From a virus (taxonomy: Duplodnaviria > Heunggongvirae > Uroviricota > Caudoviricetes): a DNA stretch of 39,834 bases. Shown here in pieces: positions 3,088 to 34,637 of this stretch (its first letter is position 1; each line of letters begins with the position of its first letter). The stretch is taken from the IMG/VR virus record IMGVR_UViG_2563366858_000008; one strand, given 5' to 3'. The notes beneath the pieces were generated by a model. That model was not told the origin of the DNA. It saw only the letters and a program-made list of their open reading frames with translations, and searched no databases. Both the position numbers and the translations under genes were made by a program.

Positions 3088-3190
3088 AAAGACCACCGTT
3101 TAATGTGCATGAAGCCCCACTTAGTTAGTGAAATAACACACATATTAAACCATATATGAATCACATTTAAACGGATAACTCTTCACGAAA

Positions 3191-7444: not shown

Positions 7445-7600
7445 GTTAAATCTCCAGATAGTCGCAGCACCCGTTGCGCCGCATATCTGGTTATTCTATT
7501 ACCTGAAAAACCATATATGGATGGAAAGAGTGTTAATGTGAGCAGATATTACCTTTCAGGTGATTCGCAAAACGTGCTGGATAGCAAACAAATTATCTGC

Positions 7601-7620
7601 TACTGTATAAATATACAGTT
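7601..7620 (+). promoter_or_regulatory. LexA (SOS) box
   Basis: TACTGTATAAATATACAGTT matches CTGT-(A/T)8-ACAG; lies 20 bp upstream of the moron start codon. Confidence 0.75.
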
Positions 7621-22151: not shown

Positions 22152-22448
22152 TCACTCCTGTTCACTGGCCTCTTTGGCCATCTTCAAATACTGTTCAGGG
22201 CAATGCGCCATAACGCGCTGAAACAGTTCCAGCGCCAGATTGCGTTGCCCCTCATTAAATGCCATAGCCATAGCGTCCATCGGTGAGATAGCAGAAAACA
22301 CACGGCCTTTCTCCAGCACCGACCAGACAACGCGACGCCCCTGTTCACTGCTCATGACAAAGCGAATGTCATCAATTTCACGCTGTGCCATGTCACGTTG
22401 CTTACGGGCGTTTTCTTCTTTCAGTTGATCGTCTTCGTAATCTGTCAT
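22152..22448 (-). CDS. Small head-assembly protein
   Basis: 98 aa; ATGA overlap with portal stop. Confidence 0.5.
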   Translation of the reverse strand: MTDYEDDQLKEENARKQRDMAQREIDDIRFVMSSEQGRRVVWSVLEKGRVFSAISPMDAMAMAFNEGQRNLALELFQRVMAHCPEQYLKMAKEASEQE

Positions 22449-24124
22449 TGTGATTGCCCACCCTGACCACTAACTGCATTCGCCATAGCTGACAAAACAC
22501 TCGGATCCGAAGTTTTAGCTTCGCTTAGCGTCTTGGCACCCTGTGCCGCCGCCATCCCCATCGCCATCATTTGTTGCTGCTGTTGCTGCTGTGCCCGTTG
22601 CTGGCGAGCCTGCTCAACCTGTTCCTGCGGAACAATGACGGTTGGAGACACTCCAGACATATCAGCGAATGCATCGATTGCCTGATCAACGTTGAGTTTG
22701 TCGAGAGCTTCTGGTTTCGCTTGCGCAAGTTGACCAATGAAGTTGACCGTAGACGCCAGACTGGACAGGCCGATAGACTTCTGCGCCTGAGCCATGACGG
22801 AAATGTATTCGACCTTCAGGGGCATACCTTCCATCGCGTCAGGCGGGGGCGGCAGCATGTTTTTACGCACCATCATCGAGAAAGCGCGGTCAATGAGAGG
22901 ATTAAGACATTCGTCGTTCAGACGCTCCAGAACCGGCCCCAACATCAGAAGTTTTTCTTCTTTCATTTCGATCACCGCTTCAACAGGCATCGAACGGGTA
23001 TTGATGTTCTGCAACATCATGAACAGATCGACAAAGTAGGCACTGTTAATGATTTGACGAGTGTCCTGAATGTCTGCCACCAGATCTGCTGTACTGGGGT
23101 TAACCAGATAAGCAGGCCTGAAACCATCCTGACCAGTAATCTGATCGATATACGTGATGTCGCCAGGAAGAAGGGAGGCGCGCTGATTCTTGAGGGAAGT
23201 CGGAGCAATCATCGGCGGATTGGTGGCTTTATCAATCAACTGCGACTTGCGCTTCTGGAGAAGCTGCAATGCCTTAACAGGTCCAAGCGCCAGCATACCC
23301 GGGCATGATGATCCATAAACATCTTCGCCGTTAACTTCCCAGCGCGGAGCCATAATTGGAAACTCATCGAATCCTGACTCACGCAACAACTTGTCGTTAT
23401 CACCGCCAACCTCGTAATAAACCGATTTGAATGGCTTGTTCTTGCTATCCAGCTTCGATGTATCGCGGTCAATGTTCGGGTAAACCGAATGCATCACTTC
23501 AATCCACTTCTCGTAGGTGCCGCTTTCCCACATGCTTTTTACGGATTCGCTGACGTTATTTAGCCCGAACTCCTGAACAAGCTGACGAACAGTCATAGAG
23601 AACTTGCGAAAACAGGTGTCCACACTGCCACGAGGTGAGTTAGCCAGGTAGTAACTGCCTATAGGGAATGGCATTGTGCGAATGATGTCCTCGTCATCCT
23701 CCAGCACCGCCATTGCACCAGTGCTGTATGTGCCGAGGCTTCCGTATAACTGCGGCAGCGACTGATAGAGATTCGACTTATTGAACATATCGTTCATGCG
23801 GTTCTGCACCGCCTCAAGCCACAACTTAACAGGGCCATAATCCATCATTTCAGGATCTGGCGTAGCCAGGCGAAACCACGGACGCGCGGGGCTTGTGATG
23901 CCTGACATCATGCCGCTGGCGAGAGTGCGCGCCGCCATAGTCCCGGTCGAATCAATAATGCGTGTATTCCGTCGATCGTTACGGTTGACCTCAGAAGTCA
24001 GAAAGCGGGAACCACGCGGGTTGATGTAATCACTCAACTCGCGCCAGTGCGGCTCGAACGACTGACGCTCGCTTTCAAGTTGTGCGAACTGTTTGTTCAA
24101 TCGCTCTTTAGTTGTTTCCGCCAT
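22445..24124 (-). CDS. Portal protein, podovirus head-to-tail connector type
   Basis: 559 aa; Gln-rich C-terminal tail (QQQQQQQMMAMGMAAAQ) as in T7 gp8-type connectors. Confidence 0.85.
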   Translation of the reverse strand: MAETTKERLNKQFAQLESERQSFEPHWRELSDYINPRGSRFLTSEVNRNDRRNTRIIDSTGTMAARTLASGMMSGITSPARPWFRLATPDPEMMDYGPVKLWLEAVQNRMNDMFNKSNLYQSLPQLYGSLGTYSTGAMAVLEDDEDIIRTMPFPIGSYYLANSPRGSVDTCFRKFSMTVRQLVQEFGLNNVSESVKSMWESGTYEKWIEVMHSVYPNIDRDTSKLDSKNKPFKSVYYEVGGDNDKLLRESGFDEFPIMAPRWEVNGEDVYGSSCPGMLALGPVKALQLLQKRKSQLIDKATNPPMIAPTSLKNQRASLLPGDITYIDQITGQDGFRPAYLVNPSTADLVADIQDTRQIINSAYFVDLFMMLQNINTRSMPVEAVIEMKEEKLLMLGPVLERLNDECLNPLIDRAFSMMVRKNMLPPPPDAMEGMPLKVEYISVMAQAQKSIGLSSLASTVNFIGQLAQAKPEALDKLNVDQAIDAFADMSGVSPTVIVPQEQVEQARQQRAQQQQQQQMMAMGMAAAQGAKTLSEAKTSDPSVLSAMANAVSGQGGQSQ

Positions 24125-24138
24125 TTCAATGACTCCGG

Positions 24139-24345
24139 TTACTGACCAAGCAGCGTTTTACCGCTGGCATTAGCGGTTGATGTGTCGCCCTGAGAACCGG
24201 TAAGCAGCGTAGAACTACGACCAGCAGCAGCGCGACGGCGACGTGTTTCTTCGTCGCGGGCATCAACAACGGCGGCATCCTGCTCCTGTGGTGCTGCCTG
24301 AACTTCTGGTGTTGCAGGCACTGATGGTGAGCTACCCATGCACAT
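24139..24345 (-). CDS. Small protein upstream of portal
   Basis: GGAG RBS 9 nt upstream of ATG; 68 aa, Ala/Arg-rich. Confidence 0.45.
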   Translation of the reverse strand: MCMGSSPSVPATPEVQAAPQEQDAAVVDARDEETRRRRAAAGRSSTLLTGSQGDTSTANASGKTLLGQ

Positions 24346-24413
24346 ATCAATGACTCCGTACGCAATTAAATTATTACCAATTTAACCACATATGATTTAT
24401 TTATCGTAGATAG

Positions 24414-24419
24414 TTGACA
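24414..24419 (+). promoter_or_regulatory. TTGACA -35-like hexamer upstream of the tRNA; -10 unclear
   Basis: Consensus -35 located 16 bp before the operator-like repeat at 24436. Confidence 0.35.
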
Positions 24420-24435
24420 TTTAACGCACAAATTA

Positions 24436-24450
24436 TTACCTTTAAGGTAA
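24436..24450. promoter_or_regulatory. Operator-like inverted repeat TTACCTTTAAGGTAA (perfect)
   Basis: Perfect TTACC-N5-GGTAA in the noncoding region upstream of the tRNA. Confidence 0.6.
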
Positions 24451-24772
24451 CCAAAGAGTTCATTCCGGTTACTAACCTGACTGGCTTGTCGTTAAATTGA
24501 ACAGGTGGAGTGAGCTTTTATTTTGAGCAGTACGGCGTATGGCACATGCGCCGATAGCGGTCTGGATACGTTTAAGGGGCACCCTCCCTTGCTCGGGCAA
24601 ACGAACCAGGTAGCCGGAATGTGCAAGTCGAGCGGTTTTATTCCGCGCACGGGGATTCACCATCCCGGCGATTCGGTGTGACGCCTCGGAAGAGACGAGG
24701 GTACAACGATGAGAGCATTTATGGAGCCGCGACAAAGTGTGGTGCCTTAACAGGCTAAGTGCTCTCAGCGTT

Positions 24773-24849
24773 GTGGCATTAGCTCAGTTGGACAGAGCAA
24801 CCGCCTTCTAAGCGGTTGGTCGCAGGTTCGAATCCTGCATGCCACGCCA
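24773..24849 (+). tRNA. tRNA-Arg (anticodon UCU), phage-encoded
   Basis: Full cloverleaf: acceptor GTGGCAT/ATGCCAC, D-arm GCTC/GAGC, anticodon stem ACCGC/GCGGT with loop CTTCTAA, T-arm GCAGG-TTCGAAT-CCTGC, discriminator G and encoded CCA. Confidence 0.95.
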
Positions 24850-24892: not shown

Positions 24893-24934
24893 GGCGGTGA
24901 TGGTTTCCCTTGAAGGACTATCACCGCCCTTTTT
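24893..24934 (+). terminator. Intrinsic terminator after the tRNA
   Basis: 9-bp stem GGCGGTGAT/ATCACCGCC followed by CTTTTT. Confidence 0.7.
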
Positions 24935-25012
24935 ACAGCAGGACGCCATTGCGATGACTTCATGCTGTAAACCAGTACAGCCACGGAAGGCATAACTCAT
25001 TGCTTCCAGTTC

Positions 25013-25036
25013 GCCCGGTTCGCCGGGCATTTTTTT
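25013..25036 (+). terminator. Terminator-like hairpin in the 5' leader of the 25053 gene
   Basis: GCCCGG-ttcg-CCGGGC followed by ATTTTTTT; RBS AAGGTGAG directly after. Confidence 0.6.
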
Positions 25037-25052
25037 AAGGTGAGATTAGACT

Positions 25053-25424
25053 ATGAGTGACAAAGACATTGAATCTGAAATTCAGGCTAAAGGTTTAGCC
25101 GCGCCGCGCGTTACGCCAGACCATATCGAGAGCATTATTGCTCAGGAGGCATATTTCACAGCAGAAGATGGTGTCTTTGGCGTAGCCATAAAAGCGAAAC
25201 ATACTGGCGGAGAGGTAAACTACCAGCCGCACGAATCACTTTCTCTGCTGACGTTCTGCGTTCTGGTGCTGCGCAACGGCTTCACCGTCACCGGAGAGAG
25301 CGCCTGTGCAAGCCCGGAAAACTTTGATGCGGAAATTGGTCGGAAGATTGCCCGGCAGAATGCTGTAAACAAAATCTGGATGCTTGAAGGTTACTTGCTG
25401 AAGCAGAAGTTAAGCGAGCAATAA
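25053..25424 (+). CDS. Moron protein of unknown function, co-located with the tRNA
   Basis: AAGGTGAG RBS; 123 aa; opposite strand to flanking terminase and portal genes. Confidence 0.65.
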   Translation: MSDKDIESEIQAKGLAAPRVTPDHIESIIAQEAYFTAEDGVFGVAIKAKHTGGEVNYQPHESLSLLTFCVLVLRNGFTVTGESACASPENFDAEIGRKIARQNAVNKIWMLEGYLLKQKLSEQ

Positions 25425-25514: not shown

Positions 25515-26990
25515 TTAAGCATAGGGATCGTAATCTATAATGGCCTTGCCTTGCTGGTTCTGCTGCCCGGGAATTCGCAGACGCTTAGACACAGGGAACG
25601 CAAACGTCAGCAGTAGCGCATCGCCTTTACCCGGCGAACGCCCAAGCCGCTCCTTGATATCTTCCTTCGGTTCGATAACGATTTTACCGTCCACTCGAAC
25701 TTTGTACTCTGCCGCCGACAGGTCGTCCGCTGTTTCCTGGTCATCCAGCATGCCGCCCAGCCTCAGCCATGTCTTGCATGAGTTGAACATCTCCCCACGC
25801 TTGTTGAGCATCTGCGGGTCAGTAGACGCGCCACCGAACGGAACAAGTTGCCATGTGCGCCCCCAACCGTCACCGATTGACTTCAGCCCGGTACCGTAAC
25901 CGAAGTCGATGAACACCGCGTCAGCCTGATACTGGTCTTCAAAGTCAGCGATACGCTTTGCCATAATCAGATCGTCAGTGGTCTTGTTGCCGGTCCACAG
26001 CACCTTACTGTGCAGCCCCTGCCGCAGGTATATCACCGCGTCATCAACACCGGAGTATGCAGGGTCAACGCCGATTATCACCGGAGCATGTGCCACCTGC
26101 GCAGCAGTTACCACCCGTTTCATTGCCTCGTCAGTAAGACCGGTAGGGATAAACTGCAATTCAGATGCATCCGGGAATATGCCGCGCACACGGATTTTAA
26201 CGAAGTCGCTGTCTTCCCCGTAGTCATCAACCCATTTCTGCAACTGCTGTTTGTTAGTGCCTTCCACCGTCCGGCTGTCAATCTGCGCAGTTTTCCAGCG
26301 GTGTTTATATTTGCGGAAACATTCGCGGAAACGCCCGGTGTTACGTGTAGGGTTTCCGAATGCCACCCAGATAATCTCAGTGTCTTCGTCCGTCAGCGCC
26401 CCCTCAGCAACTTCCCACACCAGATCCGCAATGTTCGACGCTTCATCGAATACCACGATGATGCGTTTGCGCTCGTTGTGTAGTCCGGCGAATGCCTCAG
26501 TGTTGTGCTCAGACCAGGGTATTGCGTCAGCCCGCCACCGCTTGTCGTGCCCTGGGTCATTGCTGTACATCGCGGTAGCGGTACAGGTAAACCAGTCTTT
26601 CGTGATAGCAAGGTTCGACCACTTGATAATTTCCGGCCAGGTCTTCGTTCGTAGCTGGTTGTCGGTGTTGGCGGTCACCACGACCTTACAATCCTCGCAA
26701 GTGGACATGCCCCAGTTGATCAGCATTGAGATAAATGCGGATTTACCAATACCGTGACCAGAAGCGCGTGCCAGCATAAGCGGCTGATAGCGCGTCTCCG
26801 GATTCTGCAGGTGATCACGTATCTCTCGGAACGCATCAGCCTGCCACTGACGTGGGCCGGTAGCATGTGCCAGTTCAGTCCCCTCTTCCCCCCACGGGAA
26901 CGCATAGAGGGCATAGCCAAGCGGATCGTGAGTGAACCCTGCAATATCCTCGATCAACTGCTCTTCAGGAGATAACGCTGTATCTGTCAC
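25515..26990 (-). CDS. Terminase large subunit
   Basis: 491 aa; N-terminal ATPase region with P-loop-like GHGIGKS and C-terminal nuclease-like region; ATGA overlap with small subunit. Confidence 0.9.
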   Translation of the reverse strand: MTDTALSPEEQLIEDIAGFTHDPLGYALYAFPWGEEGTELAHATGPRQWQADAFREIRDHLQNPETRYQPLMLARASGHGIGKSAFISMLINWGMSTCEDCKVVVTANTDNQLRTKTWPEIIKWSNLAITKDWFTCTATAMYSNDPGHDKRWRADAIPWSEHNTEAFAGLHNERKRIIVVFDEASNIADLVWEVAEGALTDEDTEIIWVAFGNPTRNTGRFRECFRKYKHRWKTAQIDSRTVEGTNKQQLQKWVDDYGEDSDFVKIRVRGIFPDASELQFIPTGLTDEAMKRVVTAAQVAHAPVIIGVDPAYSGVDDAVIYLRQGLHSKVLWTGNKTTDDLIMAKRIADFEDQYQADAVFIDFGYGTGLKSIGDGWGRTWQLVPFGGASTDPQMLNKRGEMFNSCKTWLRLGGMLDDQETADDLSAAEYKVRVDGKIVIEPKEDIKERLGRSPGKGDALLLTFAFPVSKRLRIPGQQNQQGKAIIDYDPYA

Positions 26991-27583
26991 TGATTGCCAT
27001 CCTGACGTTCTTTCAGTCTCTTCCTGGCTGCCGCTATGCGATCAGCAATTGTCACATTCACATTAACATCCAGGCGTTCTTTGAACGCGTTGACATCAAC
27101 ATGCTTACCAATCAGCTCAAGGTTCTTCACCTTGTCAGGCCATTTAATTTTTTTGAGGATTGTCTCTATCGAATCCTCGTTCATGTTCATGATGGTCGAT
27201 GACAGATCAAAGCCACTAAGCGTAGTGCGCCAGATTTTCGGCCACTCACGGATTGGTTTAAGGCTCCCATCGTCGTTGAGGATATCGATCACGTCCATCT
27301 GGTCGATCTCCACCAGGCGCATGAGAACGTAATCAGCACTGACGCGCATTCGTTTGTTGCGCTCCTCCATCAACTCGGCAATCCGTTTTTGAATGCGTAC
27401 ATCGCGCATCATGACACTGGCTTTAACTGCCGCTGTATTTGGGGAGAACCCTGCGTTAATCGCTGCCTGAGTCTGGTTTTCAGGCGTTTTGATGTATGAC
27501 TGGCAATAAGCCTCCTGCATTGCTGTGAGCGGCTTAAATTGCGTTGATTTGCGTTTATAGGTTTTAGGTTCAGCAGGCATCAT
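26987..27583 (-). CDS. Terminase small subunit
   Basis: Start MMPAEPK at ATG 27583 (the track's N-terminal extension to 27661 crosses a terminator and operator repeats); motif QEAYCQSYIKT...AAINAGFS typical of small subunits. Confidence 0.75.
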   Translation of the reverse strand: MMPAEPKTYKRKSTQFKPLTAMQEAYCQSYIKTPENQTQAAINAGFSPNTAAVKASVMMRDVRIQKRIAELMEERNKRMRVSADYVLMRLVEIDQMDVIDILNDDGSLKPIREWPKIWRTTLSGFDLSSTIMNMNEDSIETILKKIKWPDKVKNLELIGKHVDVNAFKERLDVNVNVTIADRIAAARKRLKERQDGNQ

Positions 27584-27597
27584 AACCACCGTGGTAA
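27583..27597. promoter_or_regulatory. Operator-like repeat TAACCACCGTGGTAA (1 mismatch), overlapping terS start
   Basis: Adjacent to the perfect copy at 27601; 18 bp centre-to-centre. Confidence 0.45.
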
Positions 27598-27600
27598 TAG

Positions 27601-27615
27601 TTACCGTTGTGGTAA
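27601..27615. promoter_or_regulatory. Operator-like inverted repeat TTACCGTTGTGGTAA (perfect)
   Basis: Between the late-leader terminator and the terS start codon. Confidence 0.6.
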
Positions 27616-27622
27616 TAGTACC

Positions 27623-27652
27623 ATGCAAAATAAAGCCGCCATAGTTGGCGGC
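27623..27652 (-). terminator. Intrinsic terminator immediately upstream of the terminase genes (tR'-like)
   Basis: GCCGCC-aactat-GGCGGC followed by TTTATTTTG on the minus strand. Confidence 0.65.
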
Positions 27653-27657
27653 AGTAT

Positions 27658-27870
27658 TCAAAGTCCATCAAATTCATCGTAAAAACTCTCGTCAAGATAC
27701 CCTTCCCATTTACCGCGAATGAAAATTACATCCTCGCCGCAAGGGTGCTGACTGTCGATAACTATATCCCTCCTGGCGCAACCATACTTATGCATGAGAA
27801 ATTTAACCTCTTTCGGAAAATTTGCTGAGTTATCTCTCATATCTTCAAGGTCGTAGCGTATTTTTGGCAT
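27658..27870 (-). CDS. Small protein of unknown function
   Basis: Start MPKIRYD at ATG 27870 with GAAGGTG RBS; 70 aa; the track start at 27891 is a GTG inside the palindrome. Confidence 0.5.
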   Translation of the reverse strand: MPKIRYDLEDMRDNSANFPKEVKFLMHKYGCARRDIVIDSQHPCGEDVIFIRGKWEGYLDESFYDEFDGL

Positions 27871-31431: not shown

Positions 31432-31446
31432 TTACCTCTAAGGTAA
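31432..31446. promoter_or_regulatory. Operator-like inverted repeat TTACCTCTAAGGTAA (perfect)
   Basis: Overlaps RBS/leader of the 31084..31428 gene. Confidence 0.6.
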
Positions 31447-31474
31447 TTAAAAACCACATAAGACACGAAATCAA
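31446..31474 (-). promoter_or_regulatory. Candidate sigma70 promoter for the nin-like operon
   Basis: Minus strand TTGATT, 17-bp spacer, TTTAAT; flanked by operator-like repeats at 31432 and 31494. Confidence 0.4.
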
Positions 31475-31545: not shown

Positions 31546-32331
31546 TTACTTGATAAATCCTGACGCCTTTCCCCGCCTGTATTCCTCCATCAGCCACTGC
31601 GCCGGTGTTATTCCCCCCAGGGTGGCGGCGTTAGGCATGCACCCGAAACTTCGCCCTGGCGGGTGGTAAACGTCTCTCCCTGTGTCCGGAGGCGTACTCA
31701 TGGGTTCTGGCTTTGCCTGTATGCTGATCACCGGATCGGGTATCTGCTGCCCGGAAGCCACCTTTTTCGCCCAATCATCGAGCAGCCTGCGCGCGTGTTT
31801 CTCAACCTCAATCTCGCTAAGCTGGCGCTGATACATTGCACGGCGGGTATCACATACGACCCAGTACATAACCGGATGCCGCCACGGGAATCTTTCGGGA
31901 CCACCAGGATATAAACTTTTTTCCTTGCTGTACCGGTGAAACTCCGCCATCACATCGTCAATGGTGACGCCAAGAACCATCTTGCTGTCTTTACACCACT
32001 TGATAAATTGCCCTGGCGACGGCCAGAACGGAGATTCACTGGCGCGGGCGTGGCGCATACCAGCAGAAACCTGTTCACGGGTTCGGATCCCCCCTTCGGC
32101 AAACGCAGCAATCCACTGCTGTTTTGCAGCAACTTCCTGCTCTGGCGTCTTCAGGTTGGTTACTACTGCCGCCGGAAACAGTTGTTTCAGCTGTTTGAAA
32201 AGGGCATCAACAAGCCTCTCTGCTGACATGTTCACCACATTGTCATTGTTGACGTACTGATGCTCATAACCTGACATGCGAGAAAGGGCTTCTCCGTCAC
32301 GGTTTTGTATCGCGGTAAAAACGTTGTTCAC
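31546..32331 (-). CDS. Replication protein P-like (helicase loader)
   Basis: Segment FPAAVVTNL...WIAAFAEGGIRTREQVSAGMRHARASESPFWPSPGQFIKWCK aligns with lambda P (recalled); GGAGGA RBS before GTG 32331, overlapping the O-like stop (GTGA). Confidence 0.8.
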   Translation of the reverse strand: MNNVFTAIQNRDGEALSRMSGYEHQYVNNDNVVNMSAERLVDALFKQLKQLFPAAVVTNLKTPEQEVAAKQQWIAAFAEGGIRTREQVSAGMRHARASESPFWPSPGQFIKWCKDSKMVLGVTIDDVMAEFHRYSKEKSLYPGGPERFPWRHPVMYWVVCDTRRAMYQRQLSEIEVEKHARRLLDDWAKKVASGQQIPDPVISIQAKPEPMSTPPDTGRDVYHPPGRSFGCMPNAATLGGITPAQWLMEEYRRGKASGFIK

Positions 32332-33167
32332 AAGAAATCCTCCCACGCTTCAGGGCTGTTCCAGTGCGGAACGTTGTTATCAGGTAATGTTGATTGCTTC
32401 TGTCTGCTAATCTGCAGCCGCCTTCCCAGCTTCTGCTCCCACTGTGCCTGATGGTATGCCTTACCCTCAGCCATCCAGTAAATTCTGAACTCTGCAAGTT
32501 CCTGTGCCGTTGGCAGACTGTCCAGGTAGATCCCCTGCAATGAGCTTTTCCGAAGAAAGTCATCTGATGGTTGCCATTGTTCATGCATGACAAATTTGCC
32601 TAATTGCCCTGGCCCACCAGGAGGAACAAAGTTATTCATCACGGCGTTGTTTGCGCCGGGGTCATGAGGCACAGAATCCCCGGTTTTTGTCCTGCTCTCC
32701 CTCTCTTGGTTAAATGACTGGTTATATGACTGGTTCTGGATCCCGTTTTTGGGATCATTCAACATCCCGTTTTTGGGATCATTCAACATCCCGTTTTTGG
32801 GATCATTCAACATCCCGTTTTTGGGTATATTCCCGTTTTCGGGAACATTACCGTTTTCGGGTTCATTACGTCCTTCTAGGTTGCCTTTAATGTTCCCTTT
32901 TTTGGTTATATTAAGAGAGAAAACCCGCACTCTTTTCGTCGCTCCCTTTCTCTCTCCGGTATCTGAAATAAGCCCCATTTTCATGAGCGATATAAGCCCG
33001 GCCTGCACGGTTTTTTTATTCAGGCAAGTGTCTTTAACGAGGCGTTCTATGCTGGGGTAGCAGAGGTTATATTCATCGGCTCTGTCAGCCATCGAGAGCA
33101 GTATGAGCTTTAATGACGAGCTACCTGGATCTGTCTCCCAGGCCCAATCTGTTGCATGTCTGCTCAT
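32328..33167 (-). CDS. Replication initiator O-like, with internal origin iterons
   Basis: N-terminal helix-turn-helix-like region; central NGMLNDPK x3 repeat encoded by DNA iterons; directly upstream of P-like gene. Confidence 0.7.
   Translation of the reverse strand: MSRHATDWAWETDPGSSSLKLILLSMADRADEYNLCYPSIERLVKDTCLNKKTVQAGLISLMKMGLISDTGERKGATKRVRVFSLNITKKGNIKGNLEGRNEPENGNVPENGNIPKNGMLNDPKNGMLNDPKNGMLNDPKNGIQNQSYNQSFNQERESRTKTGDSVPHDPGANNAVMNNFVPPGGPGQLGKFVMHEQWQPSDDFLRKSSLQGIYLDSLPTAQELAEFRIYWMAEGKAYHQAQWEQKLGRRLQISRQKQSTLPDNNVPHWNSPEAWEDFL
32741..32866. repeat. Origin-like iteron array inside the O-like gene
   Basis: Three exact 24-bp units TCCCGTTTTTGGGATCATTCAACA (32741, 32765, 32789) then three degenerate 18-bp units, each with a CCCG-T(4-5)-GGG dyad; AT-rich stretch follows. 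Confidence 0.75.
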
Positions 33168-33383: not shown

Positions 33384-33463
33384 GGTAAGCCCTGTTATTA
33401 GTATTGGGATTACGGTTATTTTGTGCTGACACAAAAAAAAGATCAACCAGATTTGGTTTTTTG

Positions 33464-33533: not shown

Positions 33534-33764
33534 TCATGAGTAGAAGAAGTACGCCAGTTCTGCTTTTGAGCGCAGCCATCGTCTTGTTTTACAGGCTTTA
33601 AAAAGCCCATTCATCAATACCTTACCTGGCATTTTGCGCTTACCTGTTAAGTGAGTCTGGATATAGTGACTCGTCGTTCCGGCTTCCTGTGCGAAGGCTT
33701 CACGCTCATCCGGAGTAAGTGCAAGCCAGTGTTTTTTGAAATCGAAATGTCCGTTATCGCTCAT
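33534..33764 (-). CDS. Cro-like small regulator
   Basis: 76 aa; divergent from the repressor gene across the three-site operator region. Confidence 0.5.
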   Translation of the reverse strand: MSDNGHFDFKKHWLALTPDEREAFAQEAGTTSHYIQTHLTGKRKMPGKVLMNGLFKACKTRRWLRSKAELAYFFYS

Positions 33765-33918: not shown

Positions 33919-34503
33919 ATGAAAAGTATCCAGGACGTCCGCAGGCAAAATCTCAACGACTTGATCGACCGTGAATTCAATGGTGTTCAGACGCGGATGG
34001 CAGAAAAACTTGGAACTCAGGCAAATCTGGTAAACCGCTGGGCTCTTGGCAAGAAGGTTATCGGCGACCAGGTTGCGCGAAAAATTGAAGCTGCCGCCAA
34101 TAAACCCCGTAACTGGCTTGATATCGATCGCTCGCTTTCTCAGGAAGGTTTTCAGCCTGTCGGCCCAAGCGACATTGGTCAGCTGGCGGCTCACAACCTG
34201 GAACGCTGGATGAGCGAAAGCCGCGACCTTTCAACACAGGGAAAACTTCACCGCGCATCCGGCGTCGCCCAGGTGACAATCAGCCGCCTGTTAAACAATG
34301 AGGTCAGCGTTTCCATTTCCACCCTGGAGAATGTTGCATCCGCATTCGGGCGTCACGGCTATGAATTACTGATTCACCCGCACGACCCTGCGACTATCAA
34401 CTATGACCGCTCGCGCTACGCATTGTTACCCGAAACAGAGAAGGCAAAGATCGAAAGTTACATTGAATTTGTCATCAGCCAGAACGAAAAAAACAAACAA
34501 TAA
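33919..34503 (+). CDS. Prophage repressor, tandem HTH (XRE-type), no autocleavage domain (cI-like)
   Basis: Two HTH-like segments (QTRMAEKLGTQANLVNRW and ASGVAQVTISRLL); 194 aa, no room for an S24 peptidase domain; divergent from cro-like gene. Confidence 0.7.
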   Translation: MKSIQDVRRQNLNDLIDREFNGVQTRMAEKLGTQANLVNRWALGKKVIGDQVARKIEAAANKPRNWLDIDRSLSQEGFQPVGPSDIGQLAAHNLERWMSESRDLSTQGKLHRASGVAQVTISRLLNNEVSVSISTLENVASAFGRHGYELLIHPHDPATINYDRSRYALLPETEKAKIESYIEFVISQNEKNKQ

Positions 34504-34594: not shown

Positions 34595-34622
34595 TTGACA
34601 TCAAACCAGATACGCATAATCA
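34595..34622 (+). promoter_or_regulatory. Early-left promoter (PL-like)
   Basis: TTGACA, 16-bp spacer, TAATCA; bracketed by operator sites at 34561 and 34623. Confidence 0.55.
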
Positions 34623-34637
34623 TTACCTCAACGGTAA
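34623..34637. promoter_or_regulatory. Operator site TTACCTCAACGGTAA (perfect)
   Basis: Immediately after the -10; would cover the transcription start. Confidence 0.65.

Follow-up and report, generated by a model that had tools for sequence, protein, structure and literature searches.

The dyad at 24436-24450 is well supported by its sequence family as an operator of the phage lysogeny repressor, Rep, and it probably lies over a sigma-70 promoter whose induced early transcript would consist of a structured leader RNA followed by a tRNA-Arg(UCU). The leader belongs to an RNA family that was previously unannotated and is absent from Rfam, and it is the part of the arrangement that deserves follow-up. 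The argument draws on sequence elements, enrichment, conservation, geometry and RNA covariation that were observed directly. The window, by which we mean the whole analysed stretch of 39,834 nucleotides, represents a temperate podovirus of the phiV10/epsilon15 type (Uetakevirus) with 99% identity to Escherichia phage phiV10, and its orientation is opposite to that of the phiV10 record. The interval before the tRNA gene, described in the first-pass annotation as an about 400-bp noncoding region, measures 427 bp from the gp06 start codon on the minus strand to the tRNA-Arg, and far from being empty it encodes a conserved pseudoknotted RNA.

Predicted operator dyads of the phage repressor

The dyad TTACCTTTAAGGTAA is formed by two perfect 7-bp arms, TTACCTT and AAGGTAA, separated by one central base, and it follows a plus-strand TTGACA hexamer after a 16-nt stretch (tttaacgcacaaatta), exactly as first described. 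Sites of the form TTACC-N5-GGTAA with at most one mismatch were found 13 times in the window against 0.62 ± 0.65 expected, an enrichment of about 20-fold that was reached in none of 100 shuffles and that places the dyad far from chance. The TTACC/N5 family also ranked first in an unbiased count of 5-mer dyads with spacers of 3 to 7 in the window, phiV10, epsilon15, SPC32H and Tyrion, and its sites are intergenic and syntenic (Table 1). The site at 24436-24450 has no mismatch to TTACC-N5-GGTAA and agrees at 16 of 17 positions with the consensus A-TTACC-WWWWW-GGTAA-T, which summarizes 37 sites from four genomes.

The Rep protein encoded in the window, which is expected to act in trans on the dyad, is homologous to the repressor of phage SPC32H (PDB 5D50, E = 4e-42, residues 1-190). 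As described in a citing paper, SPC32H Rep binds palindromic operators as a tetramer and is disassembled by the antirepressor Ant (PMC9638917). SPC32H shares with the window a full-length Rep homolog (PDB 5D50/5D4Z), the same dyad family and the same order of promoter, operator, RNA and tRNA-Arg; the two Rep proteins are clearly diverged, with an N-terminal domain that is well conserved in the alignment. The TTACC half-site was the same in each of the five full genomes, even where the repressors are clearly diverged. Epsilon15, in turn, carries the dyad as ATTACC-N5-GGTAAT at syntenic sites, and its depositors annotated these in the GenBank record (NC_004775.2) as 'repressor': the homologous dyad at 2931-2947 before gp3/portal (a protein_bind feature), and others at OL and ahead of terS, the tailspike gene and the RuvC gene in the gp45 slot. 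The operator at 24436-24450 is thus not new, its epsilon15 homolog having already been annotated. We infer Rep binding and regulation at this site from the motif family, its conservation and that annotation; the same dyad might also be bound by Cro or another regulator. A paper on vB_EcoP_ZX5 reports reduced holin and endolysin mRNA when the repressor is overexpressed, the operators not being defined there.

Other members of the family stand at positions of interest in their own right. A tandem pair, TAACCACCGTGGTAA and TTACCGTTGTGGTAA, separated by 3 bp at 27583-27615, is flanked by the terminator that closes the early-right operon and by the first ATG in frame with the terS ORF (about 27580), a position from which the repressor may directly gate read-through into the packaging and late genes. 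The dyad at 31432-31446 stops 3 nt short of the start codon (31428, minus strand) of the gp45 (DUF1064) homolog and contains the likely Shine-Dalgarno sequence GAGGT of that gene, so that the operator would overlap the gp45 -10, start site and ribosome-binding site. A LexA-box-like sequence, CTGT-N8-ACAG, lies directly upstream of an ant-like gene at about 7603-7618, adjoining the dyad at 7549-7563 and the tailspike promoter box. This resembles the antirepressor arrangement of SPC32H, in which ant is reportedly controlled by LexA through an adjoining LexA box. Three dyads of a different kind, ATCCC-N6-GGGAT, were seen at 32740, 32764 and 32788, with exact 24-bp spacing, inside the replication-initiator gene (32328..33167, minus strand); the copies are iteron-like and suggest a replication origin inside the initiator gene, as in lambda O.

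Table 1 Features of the window and related RNA copies, with coordinates, strand and basis.
Feature	Coordinates	Strand	Basis or remark
-35 hexamer TTGACA of promoter toward leader RNA and tRNA	24414..24419	+	kept in relatives
Putative -10 TACCTT, within left dyad arm, 17-nt spacer	24437..24442	+	relaxed scan
Operator dyad TTACCTTTAAGGTAA, predicted Rep binding site	24436..24450	.	motif family, conservation, epsilon15 annotation
Structured leader RNA ('element B')	about 24512..24772	+	covariance model and covariation
H1	24533-24541/24545-24553	+	
H2	24560-24565/24603-24608	+	
Invariant single strand CCGGAATGTGCAAG	24614-24627	+	
H4	24652-24655/24663-24666	+	
Pseudoknot	24658-24661 with 24675-24678	+	
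H5	24684-24688/24696-24700	+	
3' helix	24711-24717/24760-24766	+	read from alignment A2, outside the statistical test
tRNA-Arg, anticodon TCT, reads AGA	24773..24849	+	ARAGORN; Rfam tRNA, 73 bits
Intrinsic terminator t1, 3' of tRNA	24893..24936	+	14-bp stem, then T run
Intrinsic terminator t2, just 5' of gp49/66-family ORF	25013..25036	+	6 G-C pairs, then ATTTTTTT
ORF, N4 Gp49/Sf6 gene 66 family	25053..25424	+	PF13876, E = 2e-35; homologous to phiV10 gp03
Late-type promoter candidate for gp06/portal: box TCATATGTGGTT (24395..24384), 7-nt spacer, -10-like TAATAA (24376..24371)	24371..24395	-	predicted promoter function
Recurring box, roughly CCATATGTGGTT, then 7 nt and -10-like hexamer	24384-24395, 7509-7520, 3148-3159, 31452-31463, 33445-33456	all -	
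gp06	24345..24139	-	start codon at 24345
Portal gene	24124..22445	leftward	
terS and terL	27661..25515	leftward	
Tandem dyads directly 5' of terS	27601, 27583		
Dyads 5' of gp45 homolog	31494, 31432		
Dyad after cro terminator	33464		
cro-like gene	33764..33534	-	
OR dyads	33801, 33832, 33849		beside rep and cro
rep, gene of the 194-aa repressor expected to act on the dyad	33919..34503	+	SPC32H repressor homolog; HTH_3 domain
OL dyads	34561, 34623		beside rep
PL, TTGACA-17-AATCAT; dyad 34623-34637 begins at last -10 base	34595..34637	+	promoter scan 10/12
Further RNA copies	P1 (L003) 1997-2271; cdtI (L004) 1996-2270; epsilon15 (L005) 2740-2524		

A probable conserved promoter beneath the dyad

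In a relaxed scan, TTGACA-17-TACCTT scored 9/12 and was the best plus-strand candidate between gp06 and the tRNA gene, with a -35 matching at 6/6 positions, a spacer of 17 and a -10 matching at 3/6, in which the key bases A2 and T6 are retained. A standard promoter scan made no call at this site because its -10 matches at only three of six positions. The start site is predicted near 24449-24450. Comparison of nine Uetakevirus genomes from Escherichia, Salmonella, Enterobacter and Klebsiella hosts gave TTGACA in six and TTGACC in the three Klebsiella phages, always 16 nt before the dyad; the spacer is fixed in length and drifts in sequence, the dyad is kept, and homology collapses directly past it. 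The TAnnnT core of the -10 is kept in all relatives, as TACCTT or, in Tyrion, TACCCT. The conservation of -35, spacer length and dyad, with homology ending after the dyad, points to a sigma-70 promoter with an operator over its -10 and start. The overlap of the dyad with a promoter-like element, which had been proposed from the window sequence, is borne out by this conserved geometry, the dyad covering the putative -10 and start region.

A lone TTGACA carries no significance in the window, where the hexamer occurs 12 times, and the -10 at this site is poor, so the dyad might be thought to stand beside TTGACA by chance and without regulatory role. This we find hardly credible, given a dyad family enriched 20-fold, a position and spacing kept in nine genomes and a sequence at 24436-24450 close to the operator consensus. 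The dyad follows the hexamer in only two of the 12 cases, this site and PL (34595). At PL, the dyad starts 22 nt past TTGACA and extends from about -7 to +8, as compared with about -13 to +2 at the 24436-24450 site, and at the PR candidate, which the promoter scan also called, it spans the -35 and spacer. Dyads thus overlap core promoter elements at all three sites, which fits direct exclusion of RNA polymerase, and a rightward early promoter under the operator is likely on these sequence grounds.

The same relaxed scan returned another promoter-like site of lower score between the dyad and the tRNA gene, TTGAAC-16-TATTTT (24497-24524, 8/12), which could drive Rep-independent transcription. 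If Rep bound the dyad and the tRNA were nevertheless transcribed from such an internal promoter, tRNA synthesis would be independent of the repressor. The predicted start of this site, near 24531 at the 5' edge of H1, would suit that explanation, which we nonetheless hold to be quite improbable: the site is weaker than the upstream one, it is not conserved, since relatives carry CCAGGTGTG in place of TATTTT, and the covariance match to the RNA begins at 24512, upstream of its predicted start. The segment that contains most of it, 24451-24511, amounts to about 60 to 75 extra nucleotides between operator and RNA in the window, phiV10 and the Klebsiella phages, is missing from SPC32H, and includes a weak hairpin at 24465-24484.

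A structured leader RNA between operator and tRNA

The conserved product of the likely rightward promoter would be a structured RNA, matched by the covariance model at 24512-24739 with 164 bits. It measures 228 nt, or about 260 nt when the 3' helix is included, and the tRNA-Arg begins 6 nt past the last leader helix. Fold statistics were obtained from 50 non-redundant copies of the RNA. Under the model of five helices and a pseudoknot, 96% of cells were paired, as opposed to 29-48% with slid partners. Compensatory changes were found at 13 pairs, against 7.2 ± 1.3 in shuffles, and in 99 cells, against 26, values that none of 500 shuffles reached. The invariant core of the family is CCGGAAUGUGCAAG.

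Several identities for this RNA were considered and rejected. A known Rfam RNA was ruled out, as the plus strand of 24450-24772 gave nothing in Rfam 15 at the gathering threshold or at E up to 10, the tRNA being the only match. A small protein gene was equally untenable, no frame being open in more than 14 of the 50 copies and no reading frame being conserved; the products of Tyrion 'gp54' and cdtI orf39 gave no Pfam match. A literature text search for the invariant core sequence returned irrelevant matches only. A 5' leader specific to tRNAs was discarded as well: a tRNA is missing between -700 and +900 in 104 of 152 copies, and in a further 18 it lies upstream. Where tRNA genes do accompany the RNA, a tRNA-Arg(TCT) lies just downstream in 28 copies, and a tRNA(CAT) just upstream in 18, as in P1.

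The 3' half of the RNA is about 80% identical to unannotated DNA in cdtI, mEp460, Stx2c phages and P1. The pattern of the invariant 14-mer occurs in more than 120 viral contigs and at 21 genuine loci of enterobacterial genomes; two further matches, one in an Arthrobacter sequence (L133) and the other in a Binatia MAG (L145), failed to align and were set aside as coincidental. By megablast, the RNA was detected in 1071 of 5426 complete E. coli genomes (about 20%), and it was unannotated in nearly all of the matches listed. It is also present in P1-like plasmids and in prophages of Klebsiella, Salmonella, Citrobacter, Kosakonia and other enterobacteria. Every Uetakevirus examined has the RNA, always in the same orientation, and the diverged copy of epsilon15 was recovered by the covariance model (46 bits, E about 1e-12) in the matching place and direction.

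Genomic context of the RNA

Outside Uetakevirus, the RNA lies right after the repressor gene of cdtI, mEp460 and mEp390, on the strand of the early-left genes. The order in cdtI and mEp390 is repressor gene, terminator, strong TTGACA promoter and, 30-50 nt later, the RNA. In 87 non-redundant RNA contexts, same-strand promoter-like sites peak 100-200 nt upstream of the invariant core, with 51 in this bin and at most eight in any other, the opposite strand having none in the same bin; a strong promoter-like site was found just upstream in 42 of the 87. The window, SPC32H, cdtI and mEp390 all have the RNA just downstream of a predicted repressor-controlled early promoter. The RNA is typically a promoter-proximal leader of repressor-controlled early transcripts, and its conservation and promoter-proximal position, with two-thirds of the copies lacking a nearby tRNA, make the tRNA optional cargo.

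A full-length copy (135 bits) was also found in Klebsiella phage SopranoGao (Lastavirus; L158, 2418-2635), whose genome measures 61 kb and shows no obvious sign of a temperate lifestyle; the copy follows the lysis genes and lies close to the end of that genome. This copy indicates that the RNA is not confined to repressor-controlled settings.

A candidate divergent promoter for gp06/portal

On the opposite strand, a box followed by 7 nt and a -10-like hexamer forms a candidate late-type promoter for gp06/portal (Table 1). Box and -10 lie inside a 29-nt block that is invariant in nine genomes and stops 18 bp short of the -35 on its left side, and each genome examined has the same arrangement ahead of the tailspike gene, the lysis cassette and gp45. 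The box occurs ten times in the window against 3.5 expected, its best copies all being intergenic and on the late-gene strand, and it is conserved in phiV10, epsilon15, SPC32H and Tyrion. The five sites listed in Table 1 were seen at gp06/portal, the tailspike gene, the lysis cassette, gp45 and after the cro terminator. As judged from their sequence, the box sites probably represent one class of promoter, late or middle, whose use requires an activator.

Four of the five boxes have a repressor dyad 28-41 nt upstream, the distance being 28-31 nt for the tailspike, lysis and gp45 boxes and about 40 nt for that of gp06/portal, from where the dyad may act on the gp06/portal promoter too. Taken further, in the chief alternative or complement to the rightward reading, this would make the dyad mainly a control site for the opposite strand, centred about -79 of gp06/portal, with TTGACA not being a working promoter. 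The block invariant in nine genomes with the dyad 40 nt from the box, the similar dyads upstream of the other boxes, and the annotation of epsilon15, in which the site is assigned to the late-gene strand alongside IHF and RNase III sites and no promoter in the other direction is named, would all accord with such a role. A site at -79 cannot block polymerase directly; the means could be looping to other operators through a tetrameric repressor or the blocking of an upstream activator or UP contact. SPC32H Rep is described as tetrameric in PMC9638917, and the tandem terS dyads are about 3.1 kb away. We consider a mainly opposite-strand role unlikely, as it leaves unexplained why TTGAC(A/C) is fixed 16 nt beyond the dyad in 9/9 genomes while the spacer drifts, and why a conserved RNA always follows in the rightward orientation. 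The opposite-strand and rightward roles are, in our analysis, not mutually exclusive. In lambda, OR serves both PR and PRM.

Comparison with known systems

Among the relatives, epsilon15 differs from the window in having no tRNA at the locus and only a diverged copy of the leader RNA. The likeness to lambda OL/PL and OR/PR lies in a palindromic operator placed over the core promoter so as to exclude polymerase, and in one protein serving several early promoters. Unlike the cooperative operator triplet of lambda, the 24436-24450 site is a single operator, and the operators of the window are scattered genome-wide, including before late-gene operons. The repressor further differs in architecture from that of lambda, having two HTH-type domains and, by the description in PMC9638917, being tetrameric.

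The P1 ban operon, which is controlled by the C1 repressor, resembles the window in carrying a tRNA gene, trnI, in the same direction as a member of the same RNA family. The order is reversed in P1, where trnI is followed directly by the RNA and then by ban, and its repressor and operator are unrelated to those of the window.

The put RNAs of HK022, of about 70 nt and with two stem-loops, act as nascent RNA and modify RNA polymerase for processive antitermination (PMC9378689); they suppress termination through contact with the zinc-binding domain of the polymerase beta-prime subunit. HK022 putL is like the leader RNA in position only, lying directly downstream of a repressor-controlled early promoter. 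The leader RNA, by contrast, is about 230-260 nt long, folds into five or more helices with a pseudoknot, and is present in one copy per phage where HK022 has putL and putR. Homology to put was tried and rejected: the HK022 genome gave no match by blastn or nhmmer, and none with the covariance model at E up to 1. Being unlike put in sequence, size and structure, the leader is not a member of the put family.

We regard it as possible, though doubtful, that the RNA is an undescribed, cis-acting element of processive anti-termination or anti-Rho type, put-like but unrelated to put, which would allow read-through of t1 and t2, the tRNA being a later addition that makes use of the promoter of the RNA and provides a site for RNase P processing. 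Antitermination activity of the structured RNA is speculation. Terminators are enriched 400-900 nt downstream of the RNA overall, but are absent or weak in cdtI and mEp390; two terminators follow the RNA in the window, whereas no strong same-strand ones follow it in cdtI or mEp390.

Proposed mechanism and significance

In the lysogen, bound Rep would block RNA polymerase at the 24414-24450 promoter, as at PL and PR. Once Rep is inactivated, the rightward promoter would fire as an early unit, directed away from the portal operon. The 5' part of the transcript would be the pseudoknotted leader RNA, continuing into the tRNA-Arg(UCU), which would be released by RNase P. Most transcripts would stop at t1 and t2, and read-through would reach the gp49/66-family ORF, which lies beyond the two terminators and so could be expressed from this promoter only in that way. 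The back-to-back late-type promoter of gp06/portal may come under the influence of this operator as well. Promoter activity, expression timing and RNA function are predicted here from sequence features.

The proposal that the tRNA cassette is under the same regulator as the early promoters holds insofar as the dyad belongs to the operator family of OL and OR. This kinship, together with the overlap with a conserved promoter directed toward the tRNA, makes co-regulation with the early promoters the most economical reading. The tRNA is not the conserved target, however, since the -35, spacer and dyad persist in four relatives that lack the tRNA (epsilon15, PAT1, Kp4865-1 and Tyrion). AGA, the codon read by the tRNA, is used 6.2 times per 1000 codons in late genes and 13.9 times per 1000 in early-right genes; its usage in E. 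coli is about 2 per 1000. With these frequencies, an early supply of tRNA-Arg(UCU) gated by the repressor would be useful. With a phage tRNA placed directly under lysogeny control, the capacity to decode AGA is predicted to go up only once the prophage is induced.

The operator as such is ordinary, one more repressor site in its family, and the RNA behind the promoter is the larger payoff. If the RNA is a cis-acting regulator of transcription, it would represent a second, independent RNA solution to early-operon control beside HK022 put.
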